From NCBI GenBank assembly GCA_009783145.1, contig WRHR01000002.1:34834-98833 (forward strand): a stretch of 64,000 bases of DNA, written 5' to 3'. A model generated the notes under the pieces. That model was not told the DNA's origin. It did not search any database and worked only from the letters and a program-made list of their open reading frames with translations. A program made the translations under genes and the position numbers. Below are positions 2,597 to 21,585 of this stretch, piece by piece; the stretch's first letter is position 1; the number at the start of each line of letters is the position of its first letter. This DNA is from Alphaproteobacteria bacterium (GTDB lineage Bacteria > Pseudomonadota > Alphaproteobacteria > Rs-D84).

Positions 2597-2640
2597 ATCT
2601 GATTCTCTCCTACTCTCTTACTCTTTTACTCTCATTTAAC
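2525..2640. repeat. Heptamer/octamer-array hairpin element, family C: (agagtaga)x4 / inverted (tactctc)
   Basis: gagtaagagagtagaagagtagaagagtagaaaag ... ctctcctactctcttactcttttactctc; left arm codes LLSFFSTLLLFYSLTL of the 1895-2596 product. Confidence 0.8.
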
Positions 2641-3456
2641 CCAAACCGCCACTTCGTTTTTATCCGCTTTGCGGCAGTAAGTCGCGGCGGATTCAAAGTA
2701 CCCGTTAACGCTGACGCGATCCGCCCAATCCAGCTTTACCGTCGCCAGCCAGCCGCAAGTCTTGAAATCCAGCCCATTCAGCACCAGCGCGAATTCGCGC
2801 ACTCCCGGATGGGCGAATACCGAGAAATCCGCACCCGCCAGCGGGCTTTTTTCTGTTTTCATCACACCAGATTTTACAAGATAGTCGGTGGAGATTCCCC
2901 CAAAATCACGCCGCGCGGCATACAGCAGTTTCGTATTGCTGGCAATCGCTTTCAAGTCTTCGACCGCAACCATGCGAATCTGGCGAGTGCGCACGACATT
3001 ATACATTGATATCGCGCCCGCAGTCATAACACCTGCGATTGCAAGAACGCCCAGCATCTCTATTAGCGAACGACCTGATTGCGACAGGTTGGAGGTTGGA
3101 GGTTGGAGGTTGGAGGTTATTGATTTTGTAGAACTTGAAAGCATCTTTTTTATCTCCTCACAGTCATTGTTGATATTGTTAAACCATTCTTCTGTCAGGT
3201 AATCATTATCTTTTAGCAATTCCAGCCAATACAAAGTTTCGGAACATTCTTTTAATGCTATGTATTGCTTATTTGCAAAATCTTTTCTGCTGCTGGCATA
3301 AGCAGCTTCTGCCAAATTAGCACCGATACTTGTCCCCGATCGTAAAATTTGTTTAGAAAGAATATATTCTTTTTTTTCATCACACAAAAATTTATATAAC
3401 TTTACAACTCGACTGGCAAACTTTTTACTCTTTGTAAAAATCATACTTTCTTTCAT
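2632..3456 (-). CDS. Chimeric ORF: N-terminal four-helix-bundle protein of the 23S-rRNA-IVS protein family (TIGR02436-like) + (TSNLQPP)x3 repeat linker + type IV pilin-like C-terminal half (GRSLIEMLGVLAIAGVMTAGAISMY prepilin motif)
   Basis: Residues 1-110 match the four-helix-bundle pattern (SIGANLAEA...FIALKECSETLYWLELL); AT-rich block 3125-3456; class-III signal motif internal to ORF. Confidence 0.5.
   Translation of the reverse strand: MKESMIFTKSKKFASRVVKLYKFLCDEKKEYILSKQILRSGTSIGANLAEAAYASSRKDFANKQYIALKECSETLYWLELLKDNDYLTEEWFNNINNDCEEIKKMLSSSTKSITSNLQPPTSNLSQSGRSLIEMLGVLAIAGVMTAGAISMYNVVRTRQIRMVAVEDLKAIASNTKLLYAARRDFGGISTDYLVKSGVMKTEKSPLAGADFSVFAHPGVREFALVLNGLDFKTCGWLATVKLDWADRVSVNGYFESAATYCRKADKNEVAVWVK
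3087..3118. repeat. (ggttgga)x4 tandem heptamer repeat, in-frame inside CDS 2632-3456
   Basis: ggttggaggttggaggttggaggttggagg encodes TSNLQPPTSNLQPP. Confidence 0.8.
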
Positions 3457-3460
3457 TTTT

Positions 3461-3492
3461 ACCTCCTACTTCCTACCTCTTACCTCCTACTT
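3461..3492. repeat. Family D (ggaagta/ggaggta) single arm between chimeric-gene start and dnaX stop
   Basis: acctcctacttcctacctcttacctcctactt. Confidence 0.6.
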
Positions 3493-5037
3493 AACCGATA
3501 CAACCTCTGCCCCCGCAAATAGATTCAAAGCGTTTGCAACGGCCGGGTCGGATTCTATTTCCGCTTTTTTTATTTCGCCCGGAGTTTGAAGCGGCTCAGG
3601 CCTTGAAGCCTGCTCTATTTTTTCCAGAGTCCAAGTTTTGCCGGTTTTTTCCAACAAGAACTTATTCAGCTTTATCTGGAAATCGCGATCGTCCCGTCGG
3701 TCAAAGAATTTTATATGCCCATCCGAAAACTCGATAACTTCTATATTGTTGTTCCAATGAGTCATCAGCAGCAATTCTTTTGCATCGGAAAGCGCACAAG
3801 CCAAATCCGCAGGAGAATTTAAAGCCGGAGGCGCGGAATGCGAGGACGGCTCCGGCTGCGCGGCTTTTACGCTTTTCGTTTTGCTTTTTTCGCCTTCGCT
3901 GTGCTGCAACAAAACGGAAACCGGCGGTATGTCCGCGATATGCATCAAGCGCACGAGCAGCATATCGAAGCACTGCTTTTGATTTCCCGCTGCCTGCATT
4001 TCCGGCTGCGCGGCCACCATAACCTGCCATATCCTCGACAAGGTATTTATCCCCGCGGTCTCGACGATTTTTTTGATCTGCTCTTTTTGGTCCGCAGTGT
4101 ACGGCGAGCTTGAAGCGCCGCCGGCGCGCAAGGCCGGATGCATTCTTGTCGCCCAATGAGTCCATTCCATCATGTCAGTCAGCAGCATAGTCAAATCCGC
4201 GCCGTTCGCGTACAGCGCGTCGGCTTTGGCGATCGCCGCCGCCACATCCCCGGATAGCAGAGTCTGCATAAAATCGACAACCACACCGCGGTCCGCGCGT
4301 TTCAGCATTTCCAAGACCGCCGCTTCATCAACCTTGCCCCCCGTCTGCGCGATTGCCTGGTCCAACAGAGATACTCCGTCGCGAGCGCTGCCGTCCGCGG
4401 CGCGGGCAATCAGATCATTCGCGCCTTCGGTCAGCTCTATCTTTTCTTGGTCCGCCATCCAAGCAAAATGCTTCTTTAAAATATCGACCGGTATGCGCAC
4501 CAGATCAAACCGCTGGCAGCGCGATAAAATAGTCACCGGGACTTTGCGGATTTCAGTTGTCGCAAGTATGAAAATAACATGCGATGGCGGTTCTTCCAGA
4601 GTCTTCAACAAAGCATTAAACGCGCTGGTCGACAGCATATGGACTTCGTCGATGATATATACTTTATAGCGGCCGTTCGTAGGGCGATACCCGGCGGCGT
4701 CCAGAATATCGCGCATATTATCCACGCCGGTGTGCGACGCGGCATCGATTTCCAAGACATCGATATGCTGGCCGGCGGCGATCGCGCGGCAGTTTTCGCA
4801 AGTCCCGCAAGGCGTCGCGGTGGCCTTGTCCGCGCTTTGGCAGTTCAAGGCTTTCGCCAGAATGCGCGCGGTGCTGGTTTTCCCGGTGCCGCGTATTCCG
4901 GTGAAGATATATGCGTGAGCAATACGGTCGGTATTGATTGCGGTGGTAAGAGTCTTGACCAAGACTTCCTGGCCGATAAGCGATGCGAAATCCTGCGAAC
5001 GGTATTTCCGCGCAAGAACGGTGTAATTTGTATCCAT
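3487..5037 (-). CDS. dnaX: DNA polymerase III subunit tau/gamma
   Basis: N-terminal clamp-loader AAA+ motifs (GTGKTSTARILAKALNC, Cys4 zinc module CGTCENC, DEVHML). Confidence 0.9.
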   Translation of the reverse strand: MDTNYTVLARKYRSQDFASLIGQEVLVKTLTTAINTDRIAHAYIFTGIRGTGKTSTARILAKALNCQSADKATATPCGTCENCRAIAAGQHIDVLEIDAASHTGVDNMRDILDAAGYRPTNGRYKVYIIDEVHMLSTSAFNALLKTLEEPPSHVIFILATTEIRKVPVTILSRCQRFDLVRIPVDILKKHFAWMADQEKIELTEGANDLIARAADGSARDGVSLLDQAIAQTGGKVDEAAVLEMLKRADRGVVVDFMQTLLSGDVAAAIAKADALYANGADLTMLLTDMMEWTHWATRMHPALRAGGASSSPYTADQKEQIKKIVETAGINTLSRIWQVMVAAQPEMQAAGNQKQCFDMLLVRLMHIADIPPVSVLLQHSEGEKSKTKSVKAAQPEPSSHSAPPALNSPADLACALSDAKELLLMTHWNNNIEVIEFSDGHIKFFDRRDDRDFQIKLNKFLLEKTGKTWTLEKIEQASRPEPLQTPGEIKKAEIESDPAVANALNLFAGAEVVSVK

Positions 5038-6329: not shown

Positions 6330-9212
6330 TTACGGACATGACCCACCGGGTGTTTCCATTTCCAACTGAAAACATTTCGGCACACCATTCAGCTTGCCAG
6401 CCCGAGTTATATAGCTACATCTAAGTCCAGCCGCGACGCATCCTTGCGGACCTTCCAGGTATCCCGTGCAGCTTTCATCCATAAATACCCAAACATAGTC
6501 TTCTGAACTATACGTTGAATGGTGCTCGCCATCACCATCTGCATAAGTGAAGCCATATCCTATAAAACCACAGGCAGGATTTATTGCCGCCCCTATTGTA
6601 AAAAGCCCTGAATCGCATCCGAAGCCTTTTGCCGGACATTGCGAATTACGTTCAACACAAGCCGAATTCTGGCTGGAACCTTGTGGTACTCCGCATATAC
6701 TGCCCAGCCATGTCGTTTCGATTGAACAGCAATGGTTATTGTCTGAATTTGCAGAACAAGTGCAATTCTCAATAAGTTGGCCAATTTCGCATGGCGGATA
6801 AACGCAGGAATTGCCGTTCGACTCTTGCCCTGTCGGACAGCAATACTGATTAATACCGGAAGTGCTTACGTCGCCGGGGCAAGCGCAAGACCCATCCATA
6901 GGGAAGTTTGCCGTCGAGCACTTGGGCTTACAGCCGTCGTCCCATGCTTGCCCGGACGGACAGCAATGTCCATGACTGGCGTTGCTGCAAGAGCACTCGT
7001 CCGTAGCGGGTCCCGGGATCGGGCACGGAGGCTTGCCCGTAACGCAATTCATCCCGTTCCAAATCTGTCCGACACCGCAATCCGGCTGACAACGGTTGAG
7101 GTTAATGTTCCAAACTTCGCCCGGCTCGCAGACGCCGTACGGCAATTCGCAGCGTCCCGAGATTACCAGATACCCGGCTTCGCAGACGCAGCGCTCATTC
7201 ACATAGAATCTCTGCAGACCCGTGTTTGGATCCGTTTGATATATTTGCCCAGGCCTTGGAATCGGCGCACCGACCTGCAACGACACCCAAGATGAATAAT
7301 CCGGACACAGCATCGACTGATAGAAGATATCCGATATGCTTTCTATGCATGTGTTCGGCTCGTCTATCGGACAAGCAACTTGATCGTCCGAGAACACCGC
7401 ATAGCCGCAAGTCAGCGCAACGTTCCGACACGCTCCTTTCAGCACCGCGTACACATTGTTGATATTCGCGTTATTAGACCAAGAATTAATCTGCATAACC
7501 TGCTGCGAATAGCACGCCGAAATTTCCGCCATACAACTGGAAGCGTAATCCGATATGATCCTTTCCTGAGCGGCGCGGATGCTGACCATCGCCCGCTGGA
7601 TATAATTCACCAATATATTATTCTTGTTGTTATACTTGCCGCGGTCGTCGTAAGTAAATGCGCGGCACTTGTCCAAGACCGGGCGGCAAAGGCCGCTGTT
7701 CGCATTGTCCCCCATTCCTATCTTCGAAAGCAGATACCGCACGATGCACTTGCCGTTATTGTTTTGAGCGTCGCAGGCGGAATAGCCGGACATGCTCCAC
7801 GCGCTGTTGATAAAGTTCGCATCTATCAGCGAATTATCATAATTAACCATCATCTTTCTTATCATAGAAATATTCTGGCCCAGTATGACTTCGCCATTTT
7901 CGTCTATGAATCTTTTTGTCGGATCCAAGCATTTCGCCATGTCGGCGCCGCAAACCATGTCGTCCTTCATGCATTGCTCCAAGGCCCCGACGCAGCCCTT
8001 GGCGTCGTACGCATTGTGGTCCTGCAGCACGGCCAGACGCGCCTTTTGCAGCATCTGCGTTGCGCTGCGCACGTTGGATTTAAGGGTATCGTTCATCTTT
8101 TCCAATCCCTTTTCGTACGCGATGCAGTCCTTGTCTATCTCCACGTCATAGCGGCCCGTAACCTGCCCGGTGTTCGCGCCCTTGGCCTTGCATGCGTTTA
8201 TCACGGGCGCGCAGCGCTTTTGCGCCATTTTGAACAAGTCCGTCCCGCGAAGGTTCGCAAACGAGGTATTGTTGTTCAGGCTGAACATTTCCGTAAAGTC
8301 CGTATCCAAATCGAAGTCCAAATCCAAATCCAGTCCGAAGTTGTTGTTGCCTTCCGCCACAAAAGATTCTGGGGTGCGTATCAGCTTTTCGATATCCGAC
8401 AGCATTCTGCGCGATTGGGTTGTGTCGCGGGCGTTCTGCAGTTCCAGCTCCGCTTCGGTGGCGGACATAATCGCGCGGATTTCCGGAGCCGTCAGCCCGA
8501 CATAGCGGATGCGCTGCGCCACGTCGTTCAACTGGCTGTTCGCTTCCTTTACGGCGCTTTCCACTCGCGCGTAAGACGACAAGCGCCCCGAACAGGCGCA
8601 TCGCTTTTGATTCGCGTCGATTACCGCGCAGAACTGATCCATGCAATCCGTGTACTGCACCATGCACGAATCGGTCGCAGCGCTGGTTTCTTCCCAGTTA
8701 AGCGCAGGCGCAGCAGGCGCAGAGGTCGCCGCGCGCGCCGTCAGATTACGGTTTTCGGCGCTTATATTCGAACCGGTTTGAAGGTCCGTGCCGACAATTT
8801 TCGCCCGTCCTCCGACTTCCGCCGTAGTCGGGCGCAAGGTAACCCCCGCGCGCCGCATAGGCGCGGACGCGTTCAGGCTTGCGGCATCGGTGCGCGCGGC
8901 GCGCCCTACTTGACGCGCGGCTTCGGTTATCGGGCTGGCGCGTCCGGATGCGGCCGGGGCCGCGTTCGCAACTTGACGAGATACGACTGCGCCGCGAGGA
9001 GACGGTGTCGCAGCTTGGACGCCAACTGCCGCCGGCTGATTCGCCGTTACGCGCGATACAACAGCGCCTTGGGTTTCAGTCTGATTTTGCGCGGACGAAG
9101 CGGCTGTAACGCCAACCTGCTGGCCTGGAATCGCGCGCGACGGGGCAACGTCAGCGGCCAGCGCCATGCCAGCGCAAAGAGCAAAGAACAAAGAGCAAAG
9201 AGCAAGTCTTTT
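6330..9212 (-). CDS. Large secreted Cys-rich protein B (signal peptide, A/T/G/R-rich disordered region, conserved Cys core, C-terminal Cys-dense repeats)
   Basis: about 960 aa from MKRLALCSLFFALCAGMALA; paralogous to 9215-11356 (YTDCMDQFCAV...RCACSGRL vs YYTCMDEICTA...RCACAGRV). Confidence 0.6.
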   Translation of the reverse strand, partial: KRLALCSLFFALCAGMALAADVAPSRAIPGQQVGVTAASSAQNQTETQGAVVSRVTANQPAAVGVQAATPSPRGAVVSRQVANAAPAASGRASPITEAARQVGRAARTDAASLNASAPMRRAGVTLRPTTAEVGGRAKIVGTDLQTGSNISAENRNLTARAATSAPAAPALNWEETSAATDSCMVQYTDCMDQFCAVIDANQKRCACSGRLSSYARVESAVKEANSQLNDVAQRIRYVGLTAPEIRAIMSATEAELELQNARDTTQSRRMLSDIEKLIRTPESFVAEGNNNFGLDLDLDFDLDTDFTEMFSLNNNTSFANLRGTDLFKMAQKRCAPVINACKAKGANTGQVTGRYDVEIDKDCIAYEKGLEKMNDTLKSNVRSATQMLQKARLAVLQDHNAYDAKGCVGALEQCMKDDMVCGADMAKCLDPTKRFIDENGEVILGQNISMIRKMMVNYDNSLIDANFINSAWSMSGYSACDAQNNNGKCIVRYLLSKIGMGDNANSGLCRPVLDKCRAFTYDDRGKYNNKNNILVNYIQRAMVSIRAAQERIISDYASSCMAEISACYSQQVMQINSWSNNANINNVYAVLKGACRNVALTCGYAVFSDDQVACPIDEPNTCIESISDIFYQSMLCPDYSSWVSLQVGAPIPRPGQIYQTDPNTGLQRFYVNERCVCEAGYLVISGRCELPYGVCEPGEVWNINLNRCQPDCGVGQIWNGMNCVTGKPPCPIPGPATDECSCSNASHGHCCPSGQAWDDGCKPKCSTANFPMDGSCACPGDVSTSGINQYCCPTGQESNGNSCVYPPCEIGQLIENCTCSANSDNNHCCSIETTWLGSICGVPQGSSQNSACVERNSQCPAKGFGCDSGLFTIGAAINPACGFIGYGFTYADGDGEHHSTYSSEDYVWVFMDESCTGYLEGPQGCVAAGLRCSYITRAGKLNGVPKCFQLEMETPGGSCP

Positions 9213-9214
9213 CA

Positions 9215-11356
9215 TTACCATTCGTGCGGCACGCATTGCCCGCCTTGGGTTTTGTACCCGTTGAAGCATCTGCATCCGATTTTCACGCATCCGTTCGTAC
9301 CGCCCGAGGTGGAAGTAATGCCATCGGAAGAAATGCCTTCGCAGACCGCGCTATAATCCGAATACGGAGGACACATCACGACGCCGGGGCCCCAGCCCGT
9401 GCCGAAGTCGCGGATAGAGCCTTCGCCATGCACGCCCGGCGTTTCCCGCAGGCAGCTTTCGCGCAACGATGCCGAGCTTTGTCCGCCAACCGCCGTTATG
9501 ACGTTCAGGATTTCCGTCAGCCGGACCACATTGCGGCAGTTATTGATGCTCCAATCCTGCGAGTTATTGCAACTGCCGGTGCTGTCCGGAACATCGATAA
9601 TTCTGCCCGCGCCTTGGCCGCATACCATGGTGTCATAGCAGCTTGGGACCTCCGAGCTCTGCGAGCAATAATTCCTTACGCGCGCCACGGTCCAATTCGG
9701 GTTAGACCGGTTCTGCTGGTCAAAGCAGTCATATATTTCATTGACGCAGTTCTTATAGTTCTCCTTGGCAGTCGCCAATTCGTTCGCCGTGTTCGTCGTT
9801 TCTTCCTGCGCGAACTCCAGACGCTTTTGCTGCAAGTATTGCGTCGCGGCGATCTTCTGATACGCCATGTTCGTCGCTTGCTTTTTCAGCTCTTCCCCAT
9901 ACAGGTCGCAATCCGCGTTCGCGTCCAGCGCATACTTTTGCAGGATGGAACGGCGCGCGTCCGCAACCGGGCGGCGCAAGTTCGCGTACGGGTCGCCGCT
10001 GGACGTCGTATAGCCATAGCACGCCGCGCTGGTGTTGCCGGTATAAGAATTTCCGGGGTTAACGAAGTTCAAATCGGACCCGTCGTTGCTGACGGTGATA
10101 GTGCTGTTAAGATTATACGGCCCGGTGGTGCCGCCGTACGATCCGCACGCTTCATAGATTCCGTTAAAGCAGGAATCCAGAACTCGGTTGCAGACGTTGT
10201 TGTGCCCGTACTGGAACAGCTGGTATCCCCAAAGCCTCGCCAGAAAGTCCGCCGACGTCTCGGTATTGAACAGGTTTATATCCGCCATCTGGCCCACTAT
10301 ATCGCTGACGTTCATGAACGAGTTGAACAAGTTGCCATCGTTGCTGCCCGTGATAACATTGATTTGGTTTATGGTGCTGGCATAGGTCTGCAGGTTCGCC
10401 AAGATATCGGAATCCGCGCCGTTCAGAACGCTCATAAACTCATTGAAGCTGTTCAGCCCCAGCGCGCCGTTGGTGCAGTACGAAGGCGGAGTCGTCGCAT
10501 TGCATGTCTCGCTGTATCCGGCGGTCTGTCCCATCATATGGTTGTTGCACCAGTCGGTCATGTTCTGCCCTGTGGTTTTCGCATCGCGCCAGGATACGCA
10601 GTTCAGGGTCTTTTCCGCATCGGTAAGTTGGAACGCCTCGTTCATGCTCTTGCCCCTGGTCATAATCAGCATAGACAGCTGGCCCGAAACTTTCAGCAAG
10701 TCTTCTTTCGCCTGCTGCAGTTGAGCCTCGACATTGGAAAAGGTCTTTACGCGTCCGGCGCAGGCGCAGCGGCGCTGGCCCGGATTGCGCGCGGTGCAGA
10801 TTTCGTCCATGCAGGTGTAATAAGATTCCAAACAGTTGGCGTAAGCGTCCGCGGAAATCAAGCCCGTGGTCGGATCTATTATGTTGGAATAAGTTCCCGT
10901 ATACAGCCTGTTCTGCAACAAGGTGTTCGAAGCGCTGACTCCGGCGCTGGCGCGGATCGGCACATCTCTCAGCGATATGCGCGCCTGGCTCGCGCCCGCC
11001 GGCATTGTTGCGGTACGCGCGGTGACACTGCGCGCCGGACTGCCGGGACGCGTCACTACATTTCTGGGGGTCGCGGCTGAAGCGGCATTCCCGCGCTGCG
11101 CCACGCCGCGCGAGGTCTGGCCGGTTGCTGCCGTGCCTCGGCTGGTCCCGGTTGTCGCGCCGGCTTTCGCCGCCGCCGATGTCGTTTGGGCACGTCCGGT
11201 GCGATTGTTCGCGGCGCCCGAGCGCCCGGACTGCGCGGCCGCAGTGGTCTGCGCAGGCACTGTCTGGTCGTACCCGGCAATCGGATCACCCAACGCTGGC
11301 AACGCAAAAGCGGCGCAAAGCGCAAACGCAAAGTATACAAAAAACCGGCTTTTCAT
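9215..11356 (-). CDS. Large secreted Cys-rich protein A (paralog of B)
   Basis: 713 aa, signal peptide MKSRFFVYFAFALCAAFALPALG; 4-bp overlap with downstream paralog suggests an operon. Confidence 0.6.
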   Translation of the reverse strand: MKSRFFVYFAFALCAAFALPALGDPIAGYDQTVPAQTTAAAQSGRSGAANNRTGRAQTTSAAAKAGATTGTSRGTAATGQTSRGVAQRGNAASAATPRNVVTRPGSPARSVTARTATMPAGASQARISLRDVPIRASAGVSASNTLLQNRLYTGTYSNIIDPTTGLISADAYANCLESYYTCMDEICTARNPGQRRCACAGRVKTFSNVEAQLQQAKEDLLKVSGQLSMLIMTRGKSMNEAFQLTDAEKTLNCVSWRDAKTTGQNMTDWCNNHMMGQTAGYSETCNATTPPSYCTNGALGLNSFNEFMSVLNGADSDILANLQTYASTINQINVITGSNDGNLFNSFMNVSDIVGQMADINLFNTETSADFLARLWGYQLFQYGHNNVCNRVLDSCFNGIYEACGSYGGTTGPYNLNSTITVSNDGSDLNFVNPGNSYTGNTSAACYGYTTSSGDPYANLRRPVADARRSILQKYALDANADCDLYGEELKKQATNMAYQKIAATQYLQQKRLEFAQEETTNTANELATAKENYKNCVNEIYDCFDQQNRSNPNWTVARVRNYCSQSSEVPSCYDTMVCGQGAGRIIDVPDSTGSCNNSQDWSINNCRNVVRLTEILNVITAVGGQSSASLRESCLRETPGVHGEGSIRDFGTGWGPGVVMCPPYSDYSAVCEGISSDGITSTSGGTNGCVKIGCRCFNGYKTQGGQCVPHEW

Positions 11357-11421
11357 AAAAAACCCCTTCCCTATATTCGTTTTATTATATCATAAAAACT
11401 AACTGAGTGAAAGCGTTATCA

Positions 11422-11508
11422 ATGACTAATGACCAATGACTAATGTTTAATGACCAATATAAGCGCCCATTAGTCATTCGTCATTTATCATTGGTCATTA
11501 GTCATTAA
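11422..11508. repeat. Heptamer-array hairpin element, family B (second copy)
   Basis: caatgactaatgaccaatgactaatg ... cattagtcattcgtcatttatcattggtcattagtcatt. Confidence 0.8.
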
Positions 11509-11536
11509 AAAATCGCCGCGAATACGGCGATTTTAT
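11509..11536 (-). terminator. Intrinsic terminator (aatcgccg-cgaata-cggcgatt + U-tract on minus)
   Basis: Hairpin plus T-run directly after the stop of 11537-11965. Confidence 0.55.
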
Positions 11537-11965
11537 TTACTCTTCGTCATTCGTTCCGACGACCTCTTCAATTTCTATCTTGCTTGCTTTCCATTCGGAT
11601 TTTTTAGCCTCGCATTTCTCGCCTCTATCGCCTTCTTTGGCGTCGCAATTCCATTCTTTTTTCATGCCGTCTTTTTTATCTTTCCATTTGGCTTTTTCCC
11701 CGGCTTTTTTATCCTTCCATTCTTTCTTCTTGCCTTCTTTTTTAGCTTTCATTTCGGCTTTCTTGGCATCTTTCGTACCTTTGCATTCCGTCTTTATGCT
11801 TTCGCGTTCTTGGGTCGCCTCTTCCGTGCCGGTGTACGATTTATCGGTAATCTCTACTGTCGCCGGCTCCTTTTTCTTGCCCAGGAAATCAAACATGCCG
11901 GCACTTGCCGCCGATATACCGATAACCAAAGCCAACCCCGAAATCATAACTTTTCTCATAAGCAA
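11537..11965 (-). CDS. Small secreted Lys/Glu-rich repeat protein (EWKDKKAGEKAKWKDKKDGMKKEW)
   Basis: 142 aa, signal peptide, internal K/E repeats with spaced Trp and Cys. Confidence 0.4.
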   Translation of the reverse strand: MLMRKVMISGLALVIGISAASAGMFDFLGKKKEPATVEITDKSYTGTEEATQERESIKTECKGTKDAKKAEMKAKKEGKKKEWKDKKAGEKAKWKDKKDGMKKEWNCDAKEGDRGEKCEAKKSEWKASKIEIEEVVGTNDEE

Positions 11966-13207: not shown

Positions 13208-13258
13208 ATATTGTCGGTTTTTATGCTTGTCCGCCGAAGCCTTGGCGAAAGCGGATTA

Positions 13259-13284
13259 ACAGAAATTGGTTCTGGCGACGACCT
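13259..13284. repeat. 26-bp direct repeat = duplicated 3' end of the 5S rRNA gene (right junction of the inserted cassette)
   Basis: acagaaattggttctggcgacgacct identical to 15868-15893. Confidence 0.9.
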
Positions 13285-13286
13285 GG

Positions 13287-13889
13287 TTATGCACTCATAA
13301 TACTATCCACCAATTTATGGATTCCAGCAAGCTTAGACGCCTCATACTCCTTGCCATCCGCATTGCTAAGCCCCCAGCTCCTGGCCGTATCTTGTGCCAA
13401 TTCATACCTTTTCATCATGTCCTCGAAGTTAAACTTTGCTCCATCACTATGGTCATACCCAGGCATTATTTCTTCTAGCTTCTTTTGGCACTGATGTCTT
13501 GTCGTTGGGATATCAGAAGGCGGAACATAATGTGATAACGCCCATGCTTCTATACACGGCGTATTCAATGCTATTTGTACTTTTGGCCTATTGGCAACCG
13601 AATTGCTTTCCTTTGCCTTTTGATATGCCAGTCTTACTCTTTCCGCTTTATCATCGTGATCAAACACGCACCAATATTCTACGCTTTTCTCTATTCGCTT
13701 ATCTTTGACAAAAGATACCATTCCCTCAACAATCTTCAATGGATCCGTATGCTTGTGGGGTTGAATTTGAAGCATACATCTTGGATTTAATTTACTAATC
13801 GCATCCAAATACCTTGGTTCGGAATTCACTCCCTCACAAATCACATATACTGTTTTGGTAATCAAAGGTCTACTTGGCGGGCATCTCAT
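13287..13889 (-). CDS. RloB-like protein (AbiLii-like component)
   Basis: N-terminal VYVICEGVNSEPRYL matches the RloB (vICEGxtEpnYf) signature; 20-bp overlap with the upstream ATPase gene. Confidence 0.6.
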   Translation of the reverse strand: MRCPPSRPLITKTVYVICEGVNSEPRYLDAISKLNPRCMLQIQPHKHTDPLKIVEGMVSFVKDKRIEKSVEYWCVFDHDDKAERVRLAYQKAKESNSVANRPKVQIALNTPCIEAWALSHYVPPSDIPTTRHQCQKKLEEIMPGYDHSDGAKFNFEDMMKRYELAQDTARSWGLSNADGKEYEASKLAGIHKLVDSIMSA

Positions 13890-15192
13890 CCGTATTCTCC
13901 GCAGATTTTACACCATCCAAAAAGAGATGCGCCCCTAAAAAGGGAATTGCACCATATACGCCATTCAGATACCCTCTTTCCACATCTTTGTCTTTGCGGG
14001 GGGCAAAATCTGCCAACGAATATAATTTCGAGGAATGGTCAAAATCTTTTTTTACAAACCAAATTTCATCATCACGCCATATATCCTGAATATCCATTAG
14101 CAGCGTGTTATGCAAAGATACCAATATTTGTGAACCATTTTTATTATCTGCCAATAATTGCTGCAATAAGCGCTTTACAATGAACGGATGCAGAGAGCTA
14201 TCAAACTCATCAATTATCAATAAAGCGCCTTTTTGATAATTTTTAAAGTTATATAACGCCAAAGCAAGATGTATTAGCCTATTCGTCCCGGTAGATAGTT
14301 CTGACAACTCAAAATACTCGTTCTCGACTTTGATTTTCAACTTCTCTCCTTTCGCCTTTCCAGATGCAACATCAAATGTAAAAACATAGTAGTCTTCACC
14401 ATCCATATATGATAGAGCATCGCCGAATTTTACAGGTGTCGTATATTTGGACGGCTTACTCTTTAACAATTCATTTGTTAAATCATCTGAAATTTTTACA
14501 AATTCCGCGCACTGAATACCAACATCGGATTCTTGCAATAACCTATTTAAAAATTCGGGAAAACTACTCTGTGTGTTATAAACATTATAGAATGACGACA
14601 TCTTGACCTTGGTCTTATCGTTGAAAAGCAATATGGCCCCAAAAAATTCATATAAATTTTCTATATGATCTCTATACGACCAATCAATGCTATTGAGGCC
14701 GTCAGTATCTAATTTGCGAATATAAGACATTCGATCCGCAACGGTTTTATTTTCTCTCGACCAATTTCCACCACATTCGACCTTGCCTTTTGAGCGACGA
14801 AATATCAATTCAGTTTGCGAGTCGTCTTTTATCAGTTCAAATTTCTCACTAACAAATTCCGCAGGTCTGATCTTCATTTCATACAAATACTTTTTGTTGC
14901 TCCATATAAAGCTGATTTTAAAAACCGATTCGTTATTTTCGGAAAATCTGAATTGGCTTGCCTTTACATTCAACGAAGAAATATCATCCATTTCTATCAA
15001 CAAACTTAACCAGCTCAATGAATTCATAAAATTTGATTTTCCGCTCGCATTTGCACCATAAATTACTGCTCCTGATAAGTATTCATCTGAGACAATATGG
15101 TCCAAGTGTTGTCTGCTGCCGGTTTTTTCAAAACTAATCTCTTGTTCGGAATCAAACGAGCCAAAATTTGACACGGAATATTTCACAAGCAT
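13870..15192 (-). CDS. AAA_21-type ATPase (AbiLi-like / RloA-like component)
   Basis: Walker A GANASGKSNFMNSL, Walker B LLIIDEFDSSLHP typical of AAA_21. Confidence 0.7.
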   Translation of the reverse strand: MLVKYSVSNFGSFDSEQEISFEKTGSRQHLDHIVSDEYLSGAVIYGANASGKSNFMNSLSWLSLLIEMDDISSLNVKASQFRFSENNESVFKISFIWSNKKYLYEMKIRPAEFVSEKFELIKDDSQTELIFRRSKGKVECGGNWSRENKTVADRMSYIRKLDTDGLNSIDWSYRDHIENLYEFFGAILLFNDKTKVKMSSFYNVYNTQSSFPEFLNRLLQESDVGIQCAEFVKISDDLTNELLKSKPSKYTTPVKFGDALSYMDGEDYYVFTFDVASGKAKGEKLKIKVENEYFELSELSTGTNRLIHLALALYNFKNYQKGALLIIDEFDSSLHPFIVKRLLQQLLADNKNGSQILVSLHNTLLMDIQDIWRDDEIWFVKKDFDHSSKLYSLADFAPRKDKDVERGYLNGVYGAIPFLGAHLFLDGVKSAENTDEMPAK

Positions 15193-15487
15193 GATTAACC
15201 CCTTTTATAAAAACTTCGTAAGTTTATCTTAATCGTTACACCAATGTCCGAAAAAATCAAGCAGAAAATACGATAAAGTCGCAAAAAAACAAACACTCTT
15301 GCTATTCTCGATTTTTTCGCATTCTTTATTTGACTTTTCCGTAATAGTGTTGTATAATAAAAAAGAATCACCCGAAATGGATGATTCTTCCAAAACCGGA
15401 ATCAACAAATGGCAACTCAATTTCGGCTTAAAGCACCCTGATTATGCCATAAGATGATTCTTAAAACAACAGGTATTTTGACCACAT

Positions 15488-15826
15488 GTGCAAAATACCG
15501 CATACCAAAAACAAAGGATTTATCTAATGGTATATGTAATTAATGCAACCGGCAATTATCCAAAAGATTGCCCGCCTCAATACGATTCTTGGATCGATTA
15601 CTGGATAAAAAAACGCGGCCTGATACCCGAGTGGTGTAGACACTGCAAAACGAACACGAAAGAATTAGATGGCGGCCATGTACGAATTGTAGAACAGGGC
15701 CCGGACGGAAAATGGTATTATAAAGGCGAAACCTTGTATATCGTCCCGATTTGTCGCGGATGCAATAATCCTAACAACCAAGAAATTTTCTCAGTATCAG
15801 AAACAGACTTGGTTCCTGTACCATAA
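15488..15826 (+). CDS. Small HNH-like (bba-Me) zinc-finger nuclease candidate
   Basis: CRHC ... LDGGHV ... N ... IVPICRGCN spacing resembles CxxC-H-N-CxxC HNH cores. Confidence 0.4.
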   Translation: MQNTAYQKQRIYLMVYVINATGNYPKDCPPQYDSWIDYWIKKRGLIPEWCRHCKTNTKELDGGHVRIVEQGPDGKWYYKGETLYIVPICRGCNNPNNQEIFSVSETDLVPVP

Positions 15827-15829
15827 AAA

Positions 15830-15853
15830 ACGCCCCAAAAGGGGCGTTTAATT
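15830..15853. terminator. Bidirectional intrinsic terminator (aaacgcccc-aaaa-ggggcgttt), now terminating 5S/rrn on minus
   Basis: Perfect hairpin with A-run one side and T-run the other. Confidence 0.65.
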
Positions 15854-15876
15854 CGGTTTTTATGTTTTACAGAAAT

Positions 15877-15995
15877 TGGTTCTGGCGACGACCTACTCTT
15901 CCGTGGCTTAAGCCAAAGTACCATTGGCGATGCAGGGTTTCCCTGTCTGGTTCGGGATGGAACAGAGGGTGGCTCCCGCTCAATAATCACCAGAA
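15877..15995 (-). rRNA. rrf: 5S ribosomal RNA
   Basis: ...CCAUCCCGAACCAGACAGGGAAACCCUGCAUCGCCAAUGGUACU...GGAAGAGUAGGUCGUCGCCAG; flanked by 16-nt inverted processing arms 15870-15885 / 15989-16004. Confidence 0.85.
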
Positions 15996-16155
15996 CCAAT
16001 TTCTGCGCTTGTCCGCCGTAGCTTTAGCGAAGGCGGAAACATCGTAATTCAAAATATCAAAGAATCCATTCTTTCAACATACTCTTCAAGCATTCTGTTT
16101 GATTTCACGGCGCGCGAGGCGTCATGAAATCAAACAAAGATAAAAAGTCGATCAT

Positions 16156-19889: not shown

Positions 19890-21585
<1,696 letters not shown>

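Follow-up and report, generated by a model that had tools for sequence, protein, structure and literature searches.

A small predicted zinc-binding protein, probably derived from HNH nucleases, in a repeat-flanked AbiL-type islet at a 5S rRNA gene

Organization of the 5S rRNA locus

The window, that is, the whole 64,000-nucleotide stretch analysed here (contig WRHR01000002.1 of assembly GCA_009783145.1, positions 34,834 to 98,833 of the forward strand, from an alphaproteobacterium), carries an rRNA operon on its minus strand. The subject of this study is a small protein, labelled S, whose gene lies next to the 5S rRNA gene of that operon. In the original prediction, which was made from the sequence alone, S was taken for a minimal HNH (bba-Me) nuclease beside a rebuilt 5S end, and a homing nuclease aimed at 5S was suggested. 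The results below make it probable that S descends from small zinc-HNH proteins and place its gene, together with an AbiL-type gene pair, in a short islet between direct repeats of the 5S 3' end. The features of the rRNA operon and of the islet were as follows:

21586-19890, minus strand: 16S rRNA gene
Minus strand, following the 16S rRNA gene: tRNA-Ala and tRNA-Ile genes
19031-16139, minus strand: 23S rRNA gene
15994-15880, minus strand: 5S rRNA gene, intact (Rfam, 72.5 bits), its 3' end inside the right repeat
15866-15894: right direct repeat, made up of the last 15 nt of the 5S gene (15880-15894) and 14 nt of trailer
13285-15865: inserted islet of 2,581 bp with AbiLii, AbiLi and S and no recombinase
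13870-15192, minus strand, divergent from S: AbiLi-type ABC ATPase of the AAA_21 / AAA_15 type (AAA_21, 1e-23; PADLOC AbiLi, 2.1e-68)
13287-13889, minus strand: AbiLii / RloB-like, TOPRIM/OLD-type partner (RloB, 2e-24; AbiLii, 3.7e-15)
13256-13284: left direct repeat, in which the 5S 3' end and trailer survive as a "ghost"
13218-13255, read on the minus strand: hairpin beyond the left repeat
13206-13186, minus strand: terminator following that hairpin, presumed to be the original end of the rRNA operon

S and the adjacent 5S gene were found to be convergent, as had been predicted, with a 53-nt gap that holds a terminator. The "rebuilt" 5S end also proved to be real: the segment at 15866-15894 recurs at 13256-13284 with 28 of 29 nt identical (26 nt exact), and 0 such matches were obtained in 100 shuffles. 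The islet has a GC content of 35-39% compared to approximately 50% in the flanks, and 2 nt separate the AbiLii stop codon from the left repeat. No recombinase was present in the islet, and no integrase homologue was found in the window when the tyrosine integrase from a related islet was used as query. The empty 5S site was reconstructed as ...GCGAAAGCGGATTAACAGAAATTGGTTCTGGCGACGACCTACTCTTCCG...; no empty site and no circular form was seen among public contigs, all of those with S or with the flanking 114-aa gene carrying the islet, in look-ups restricted to exact proteins. A GC-rich hairpin (TCCGCC...GGCGGA) occurs in two direct copies that are 82% identical, one in the 23S-5S spacer (16000-16037) and the other just past the ghost 5S end (13218-13255); before the insertion the two would have stood on either side of the 5S gene.

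Duplication of an RNA gene's 3' end in direct repeats is the signature of integrase-type recombination; repeats of this kind are not left behind when homing proceeds by double-strand-break repair. Here the repeats take in the 3' terminus of a structured-RNA gene and the integrase is absent from the islet, a layout that reads as a candidate attachment-site (att)-flanked, integrase-less cis-mobilizable element (CIME) at the end of such a gene. CIMEs are known as integrase-less, att-flanked islets at tRNA 3' ends (PMC6323972, PMC5704250). The islet resembles them in the duplicated RNA-gene end, in its atypical GC content, in the lack of an integrase inside and in the existence of S-bearing parallels at tRNA-Met genes (see below). 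It differs from them in its target, the 5S rRNA gene being an unusual attachment site.

The gene for S and its expression signals

The open reading frame (ORF) at 15488-15826 on the plus strand was present as predicted, and its translation bears out the CRHC, GGHV and ICRGCN motifs. The start had to be corrected. The true start of S is probably the ATG at 15527, which gives a product of 99 aa, and the GTG at 15488 probably belongs to an in-frame upstream extension that is not used. This assignment is supported by an AAGGA sequence 8 nt upstream of the ATG, by the public gene call (P0001, a 99-aa product annotated "hypothetical protein, MAG Alphaproteobacteria bacterium") and by the homologues, since the aligned Met is the first residue in 123 of the 136 aligned sequences. 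Residues are numbered from the 99-aa form. The following features were assigned on the plus strand, except for the terminator, which acts in both directions:

15330-15358: sigma-70-like promoter, TTGACT-17-TATAAT, 11 of 12 consensus positions (consensus match only)
15514-15518: Shine-Dalgarno sequence AAGGA, read from the sequence
15527-15826: S coding sequence, 99 aa (ORF list, translation and homologue alignment)
15635-15637: C37, putative zinc ligand (alignment)
15644-15646: C40, putative zinc ligand (alignment)
15677-15679: H51, putative general base
15752-15754: C76, putative zinc ligand (alignment)
15761-15763: C79, putative zinc ligand (alignment)
15764-15766: N80, putative metal ligand
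15828-15849: bidirectional intrinsic terminator with a 9-bp stem, at which the transcript of S and also the rRNA operon now end

AbiLi and S are separated by a divergent intergenic region of 334 nt, in which the promoter-like site lies. Because S has this site, a Shine-Dalgarno sequence and a terminator of its own, it appears from these signals to be an independent expression unit.

The S family

Searches with the single S sequence against Pfam, NCBIfam, PADLOC, PHROGs and PDB gave nothing usable, the PHROG matches being weak (E 0.013 and 0.046), and a word-index homologue search returned S alone. An exhaustive HMMER search was needed to find the family. At E<=1e-3 it gave 149 homologous clusters, counted at 50% identity, so that the family comprises at least that number; nearly all members are stand-alone proteins of 85-130 aa. 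A tblastn search against cultured phages found no S homologue, and one against plasmids gave a single unannotated match from Vibrio. No Pfam, NCBIfam or PADLOC model reached threshold for the family. It is thus an unnamed, unannotated and moderately large family of gut and environmental bacteria and of large gut phages that has been overlooked by Pfam, NCBIfam, PADLOC and PHROGs, and the present results provide it with a name and a testable hypothesis.

Conservation was counted in an alignment of 136 S homologues (A1). The four putative zinc ligands were found in 134 (C37), 129 (C40), 135 (C76) and 120 (C79) of the 136 sequences; at the last position a further 13 sequences have His, which fits a zinc-ligand role. 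Around the histidine, G49, H51 and V52 were retained in 135, 132 and 133 sequences, respectively, and on either side of the second CxxC, P74 in 134 and N80 in 132. The N-terminal part was also conserved, with N6 in 124, W22 in 125 and W26 in 130 of 136. Since C37, C40, H51, C76, N80 and other positions are near-invariant across the homologues, the S motif cannot be put down to chance. The isoelectric point (pI) of S was 6.1 and the family median 6.8, compared to a median of 8.95 for the relatives of the Gme HNH endonuclease described below.

One member, P0072 (786 aa), is a fusion protein in which a P-loop NTPase is joined to an S domain at the C-terminus (residues 705-772). It has a GSGKT motif, weak Pfam matches to STAND NTPases and low-complexity repeats, and the last zinc ligand of its S domain is His.

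Relationship to zinc-containing HNH proteins

The only PDB match of the A1 profile was the 104-aa Gme HNH endonuclease (Gmet_0936, PDB 4H9D; E 0.1), with the motifs in register. When A1 was compared by hhalign with an alignment of Gme HNH relatives built for that comparison (A3), a probability of 78.5% was obtained (E 1.7e-5, 50 columns, score 34.2), whereas reversed or column-shuffled profiles scored no higher than 15. Residues of the S family were paired with those of Gme HNH as follows:

C37 and C40 with C38 and C41
G50-H51 with D53-H54
Y71 with N68
C76 and C79-N80 with C73 and C76-N77

In Gme HNH, C38, C41, C73 and C76 bind zinc, and D53, H54, N68 and N77 form the active site of an enzyme for which only weak, Mn-dependent, non-specific nicking was reported (PMC3765158). 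The S family has the Cys4 CxxC...CxxC arrangement of the zinc-containing HNH subgroup as a predicted zinc site. H51 and N80, retained as noted in nearly all members, are paired with the general base H54 and with N77, the metal-binding Asn after the second CxxC. The Asp of the "DH" pair is missing, position 50 being Gly in 70, Ala in 49, Ser in 8 and Cys in 5 of the 136 sequences, with Asp outside the four commonest residues. The structural Asn, the middle N of H-N-H, is likewise missing, position 71 being Tyr in 110 and Phe in 19.

Gme HNH and its families (HNH, PF01844; HNH_5, PF14279) resemble S in being stand-alone proteins of approximately 100 aa with a W-rich helix before the first CxxC, the same Cys4 spacing, a His in the first strand and a "VPxCxxCNN" segment with Asn immediately after the last zinc ligand. 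S differs from them in that Asp53 is replaced by Gly/Ala and Asn68 by Tyr/Phe, in an additional N-terminal strand of the family that carries the invariant Asn6, in having C-terminal strands where they have helices, and in a pI that is near neutral rather than basic. Other zinc HNH proteins (McrA, TagI and the IscB/Cas9 type) are unlike S in being large, multi-domain proteins with separate DNA-recognition modules. When members of the S family were scanned singly, the commonest Pfam matches, all below threshold, were to HNH_5, DUF968, HNH and Endonuclease_7, and 10 of the 18 PHROG families matched, likewise below threshold, were annotated "HNH endonuclease". An AlphaFold model of S was very confident, its pLDDT (predicted local distance difference test) being 96.9. 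It shows a strand (residues 2-6) and a helix (22-30), followed by a long hairpin (47-57 / 63-76) and another strand (88-90); a Foldseek search of this model against PDB and BFVD gave no significant structural neighbour. Judged by these sequence comparisons, which are weak one by one but agree in pointing to HNH, descent of S from small zinc-HNH proteins is probable.

Association of S with AbiL-type genes and other neighbours

The genomic contexts of 91 other S loci were gathered, 69 from genomes and 22 viral. An AbiLi homologue was found less than 2 kb from S in seven distinct lineages, between which AbiLi is less than 60% identical: the window, L008/L009, L026, L027/L029/L040, L037, L051/L052 and L054/L062. 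These lineages span Alphaproteobacteria, Bacteroidales, Cloacimonadota and Christensenellaceae. S and AbiLi were mostly arranged head-to-head with a spacer of 240-365 nt, the two proteins show a rough co-divergence, and RloB was the next gene in most of the lineages.

The two neighbours of S in the window are clear AbiLi and AbiLii/RloB homologues, an AAA_21 ABC ATPase and a RloB/TOPRIM partner in one operon, as in the AbiL / RloAB and PARIS-type pairs of ABC ATPase and TOPRIM proteins, whose mechanism has been reviewed (PMC13064643). AbiL is described as a two-gene system, in which S could be at most an accessory in a minority of lineages. A precedent for an AAA_15/21-type ATPase acting with an HNH nuclease is Septu (PtuA ABC ATPase and PtuB HNH), and the AbiLi of the islet matched PtuA models weakly (3.9e-8). 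PtuB, however, is a canonical and larger HNH protein in the same operon as its ATPase, whereas S is divergently transcribed and a TOPRIM partner is already present. S itself matched no PADLOC model.

The closest relatives of S (48-53% identity, from gut Alphaproteobacteria) lie divergent from an HsdS-like / HsdM / HsdM block, which resembles type I restriction-modification genes, and other neighbours in genomes included RhuM, DUF2188, TIR/SEFIR and DUF2971 genes. The HsdM/HsdS, RhuM and TIR/SEFIR genes, like GIY-YIG, are genes of defence islands. In a Bacteroidia group (L024, L025, L030, L042, L044 and L047-L049), S occupies a conserved synteny of vertical appearance. In 22 viral contigs, most of them of 70-196 kb, S was found near GIY-YIG and DUF2726 genes of large gut phages. 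Among the viral contigs of this size (L074-L094), S was fixed beside a swappable slot holding a GIY-YIG/NUMOD endonuclease, a DUF2726 protein or a double-zinc-ribbon protein.

The viral occurrences raise the alternative that S is a counter-defence or anti-restriction protein of mobile elements and phages. Its position in a variable region of the viral contigs, its adjacency to restriction-modification and Abi genes in islands, and the acidic or neutral charge of over half of the family members agree with such a role. A stable, co-diverging adjacency to AbiL in chromosomal islets is not expected of an inhibitor of the host's own systems, nor is the vertical-looking synteny in Bacteroidia, and no similarity to known anti-defence families was seen in the PADLOC and PHROG scans. 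A counter-defence function is accordingly regarded as improbable.

Repeat-flanked S islets and the question of homing

A self-comparison of all S loci revealed direct repeats flanking S in several lineages. In five loci from gut Alphaproteobacteria (Enterousia-like metagenome-assembled genomes, MAGs), the repeats (26-118 nt) are copies of the 3' portion of a tRNA-Met gene and enclose islets of 3-4 kb at the following positions of the respective loci:

L017, 4243-7371
L018, 4205-8011
L020, 4384-7861
L022, 4301-7340
L050, 2311-6602

S was present in all five and RhuM in four; the variable cargo was either an MFS transporter or an APH kinase together with a GNAT protein. Pfam scans identified no integrase among the cargo genes of L017, L018, L020 and L022. 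S adjoins a tyrosine integrase (Phage_integrase and Arm-DNA-bind_3) in L031 and L033, and an integrase remnant lies beside S and a tRNA-Met in L035. In L026, from a Bacteroidales MAG, a 76-nt direct repeat (79% identical, 2676-2751 and 6660-6735) brackets a 246-aa ORF of no identified family, RloB, AbiLi and S, the left copy overlapping the 3' end of a gene; this locus is a second repeat-flanked AbiL and S cassette. S would therefore seem from these layouts to be a frequent passenger of repeat-flanked islets. The repeat-flanked S of L068, tried as a further case, was rejected as a mobile islet, the locus being of capsule type with a sugar aminotransferase.

That S might be a homing or site-specific endonuclease which recognises the 5S 3' end and moves the recombinase-less AbiL cassette was an attractive proposal, in that S is HNH-related, is the only candidate nucleic-acid enzyme of the islet besides AbiL, and is the sole gene common to the 5S islet and the integrase-less tRNA-Met islets (L017, L018, L020, L022 and L050). 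No 5S or 23S match was found within approximately 6 kb of S in any of the 91 other loci, re-assemblies of the source organism excepted, and a general linkage of S to rRNA genes was rejected on this count (0/91). The 29-nt repeats (26 nt exact) duplicate the 5S 3' end, unlike a homing insertion, and no intron or intein features were seen. In addition, S lies beside a tyrosine integrase or its remnant at the loci named above, many S genes are found in conserved chromosomal synteny or in phage genomes with no repeats, and a near-neutral protein of 99 aa offers little surface for recognition of a long site. Homing into 5S, the function put forward in the original prediction, is therefore not upheld and is given very little credence; the adjacency of S to 5S is incidental, and with it an appealing but unsupported "rRNA homing" account is removed.

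Since tRNA-Met islets occur and since S genes elsewhere adjoin a tyrosine integrase, the insertion at 5S would be economically explained by ordinary integrase-mediated recombination, with the integrase acting in trans or lost afterwards. As the 5S islet and the integrase-less tRNA-Met islets have no gene in common except S, a small probability is still reserved for a part in islet mobility or maintenance. Under that proposal, which is highly improbable, S would be a shared factor of tiny integrase-less islets at structured-RNA 3' ends (5S here, tRNA-Met in the Enterousia-like genomes), a degenerate HNH nickase that recognises or processes the sites and lets AbiL or RhuM cargo move without a recombinase of its own.

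Proposed role of S

The reading favoured here is that of a zinc-HNH-derived protein carried as cargo of an AbiL islet that recombined into 5S, with a defence-related role; as a whole it is given a probability of about 0.5. S would be a genuine predicted zinc-binding protein of 99 aa derived from His-Me finger nucleases of the Gme HNH / HNH_5 type. The family would have kept the Cys4 zinc site, the general base H51 and the metal-binding N80 after the last zinc ligand, and would have lost the Asp of the "DH" pair (Gly/Ala at 50) and the structural Asn (Tyr/Phe at 71). The 2.58-kb integrase-less defence islet, of which S would be cargo together with AbiLii and AbiLi, may have entered the 5S 3' end by site-specific recombination, bringing a replacement 5S end and terminator, and S would not be the enzyme that placed it there. 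The activity of S might be a weak or partner-dependent, metal-dependent nicking, or nucleic-acid binding, in phage defence or in conflict between mobile elements, and in some lineages S may have entered a lasting partnership with AbiL-type pairs of ATPase and TOPRIM proteins. The role most likely from these comparisons is that of a small nuclease-derived accessory of defence islets, possibly acting with AbiL here. Catalysis would be conceivable because I-PpoI and Serratia nuclease function with a single Asn as metal ligand.

Several results weigh against this reading. Throughout the family, other residues stand at two of the four positions that form the Gme HNH active site (D53 and N68). When the Cys columns were masked, the hhalign score fell to 16.8 (P 0.036); much of the signal thus comes from the zinc-site spacing, and the homology leans heavily on a CxxC...CxxC arrangement that is common to other treble-clef zinc fingers. 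No curated HNH model of Pfam or NCBIfam reached threshold for S, and DSSP showed no helix after the second CxxC in the model. The near-neutral pI of the family is unusual for an autonomous DNA enzyme, which argues for a partner-dependent or non-catalytic role. Finally, in the reverse search, S was found in 0 of 80 metagenome AbiLi loci even at E<=10 (57 of these loci included 700 bp or more of upstream sequence), which leaves S as no more than an accessory in a minority of AbiL systems. S as a standard third AbiL gene, which had been considered as a candidate, was rejected by the same search.

The minimal HNH / bba-Me nuclease of the original prediction thus stands in part. A distant homology is indicated by the 4H9D match, the hhalign probability and the Pfam and PHROG matches; the replacement of D53 and N68, the dependence on the Cys residues and the missing helix after the second CxxC weaken it. 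The description of S as a divergent, half-degenerate HNH relative with an intact predicted zinc site is, at the level of sequence, partly supported.

The same observations bear on the alternative that S is a catalytically dead, HNH-derived zinc finger, either a DNA-binding regulator of the divergent defence operon or a protein-binding adaptor or sensor. The family-wide loss of the HNH Asp and of the structural Asn, the near-neutral charge and the lack of the DSSP helix would all suit such a protein, as would the head-to-head arrangement of S and AbiLi, in which a shared control region of 240-365 nt recurs in several lineages, and the matches of three S members to phrog_1305, "DNA binding protein" (best E 4.2e-5). 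The retention of H51 and N80 in 132 of 136 sequences is hard to square with lost catalysis, though both residues could be structural. Most S members lack AbiL or any other constant divergent neighbour, and the single-Asn nucleases mentioned above show that the losses need not abolish activity. Such a non-catalytic role is rather unlikely.

If active, the nuclease-derived accessory favoured here would rank among the smallest HNH enzymes that stand alone and might serve AbiL/RloAB-type systems as an accessory; if inactive, S would exemplify a nuclease fold reused as a zinc-finger regulator. In both cases, the family would represent an HNH derivative in which half of the catalytic motif has been replaced, recurrent in defence islands and in mini-islets at the ends of RNA genes.

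Other features of the window

The 16S rRNA gene of the operon is 1,697 nt long compared to 1,533 nt in the model. In cmscan, an insertion of 168 nt was located in a hairpin at approximately model positions 80-83 (V1; window positions approximately 21340-21507, minus strand), and a further expansion of 21 nt was seen near model position 188. The V1-region insertion could be an intervening sequence. A gene at 2632-3456 on the minus strand, between dnaX (3487-5037) and an OmpA-family gene, encodes a "23S rRNA intervening sequence protein" domain (PF05635, 4.7e-31).

At 1024-1121 and 11384-11512, 10.3 kb apart, lie two palindromic blocks that resemble each other and consist of 7-nt units (AATGACT / AATGACC). 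They flank a segment of higher GC content (up to 62%), and two long ORFs in this segment, 6330-9290 (986 aa) and 9215-11356 (713 aa), matched no Pfam family. An ORF of 142 aa with no family match, at 11537-11965 on the minus strand, contains three 33-nt tandem repeats (11649-11780).
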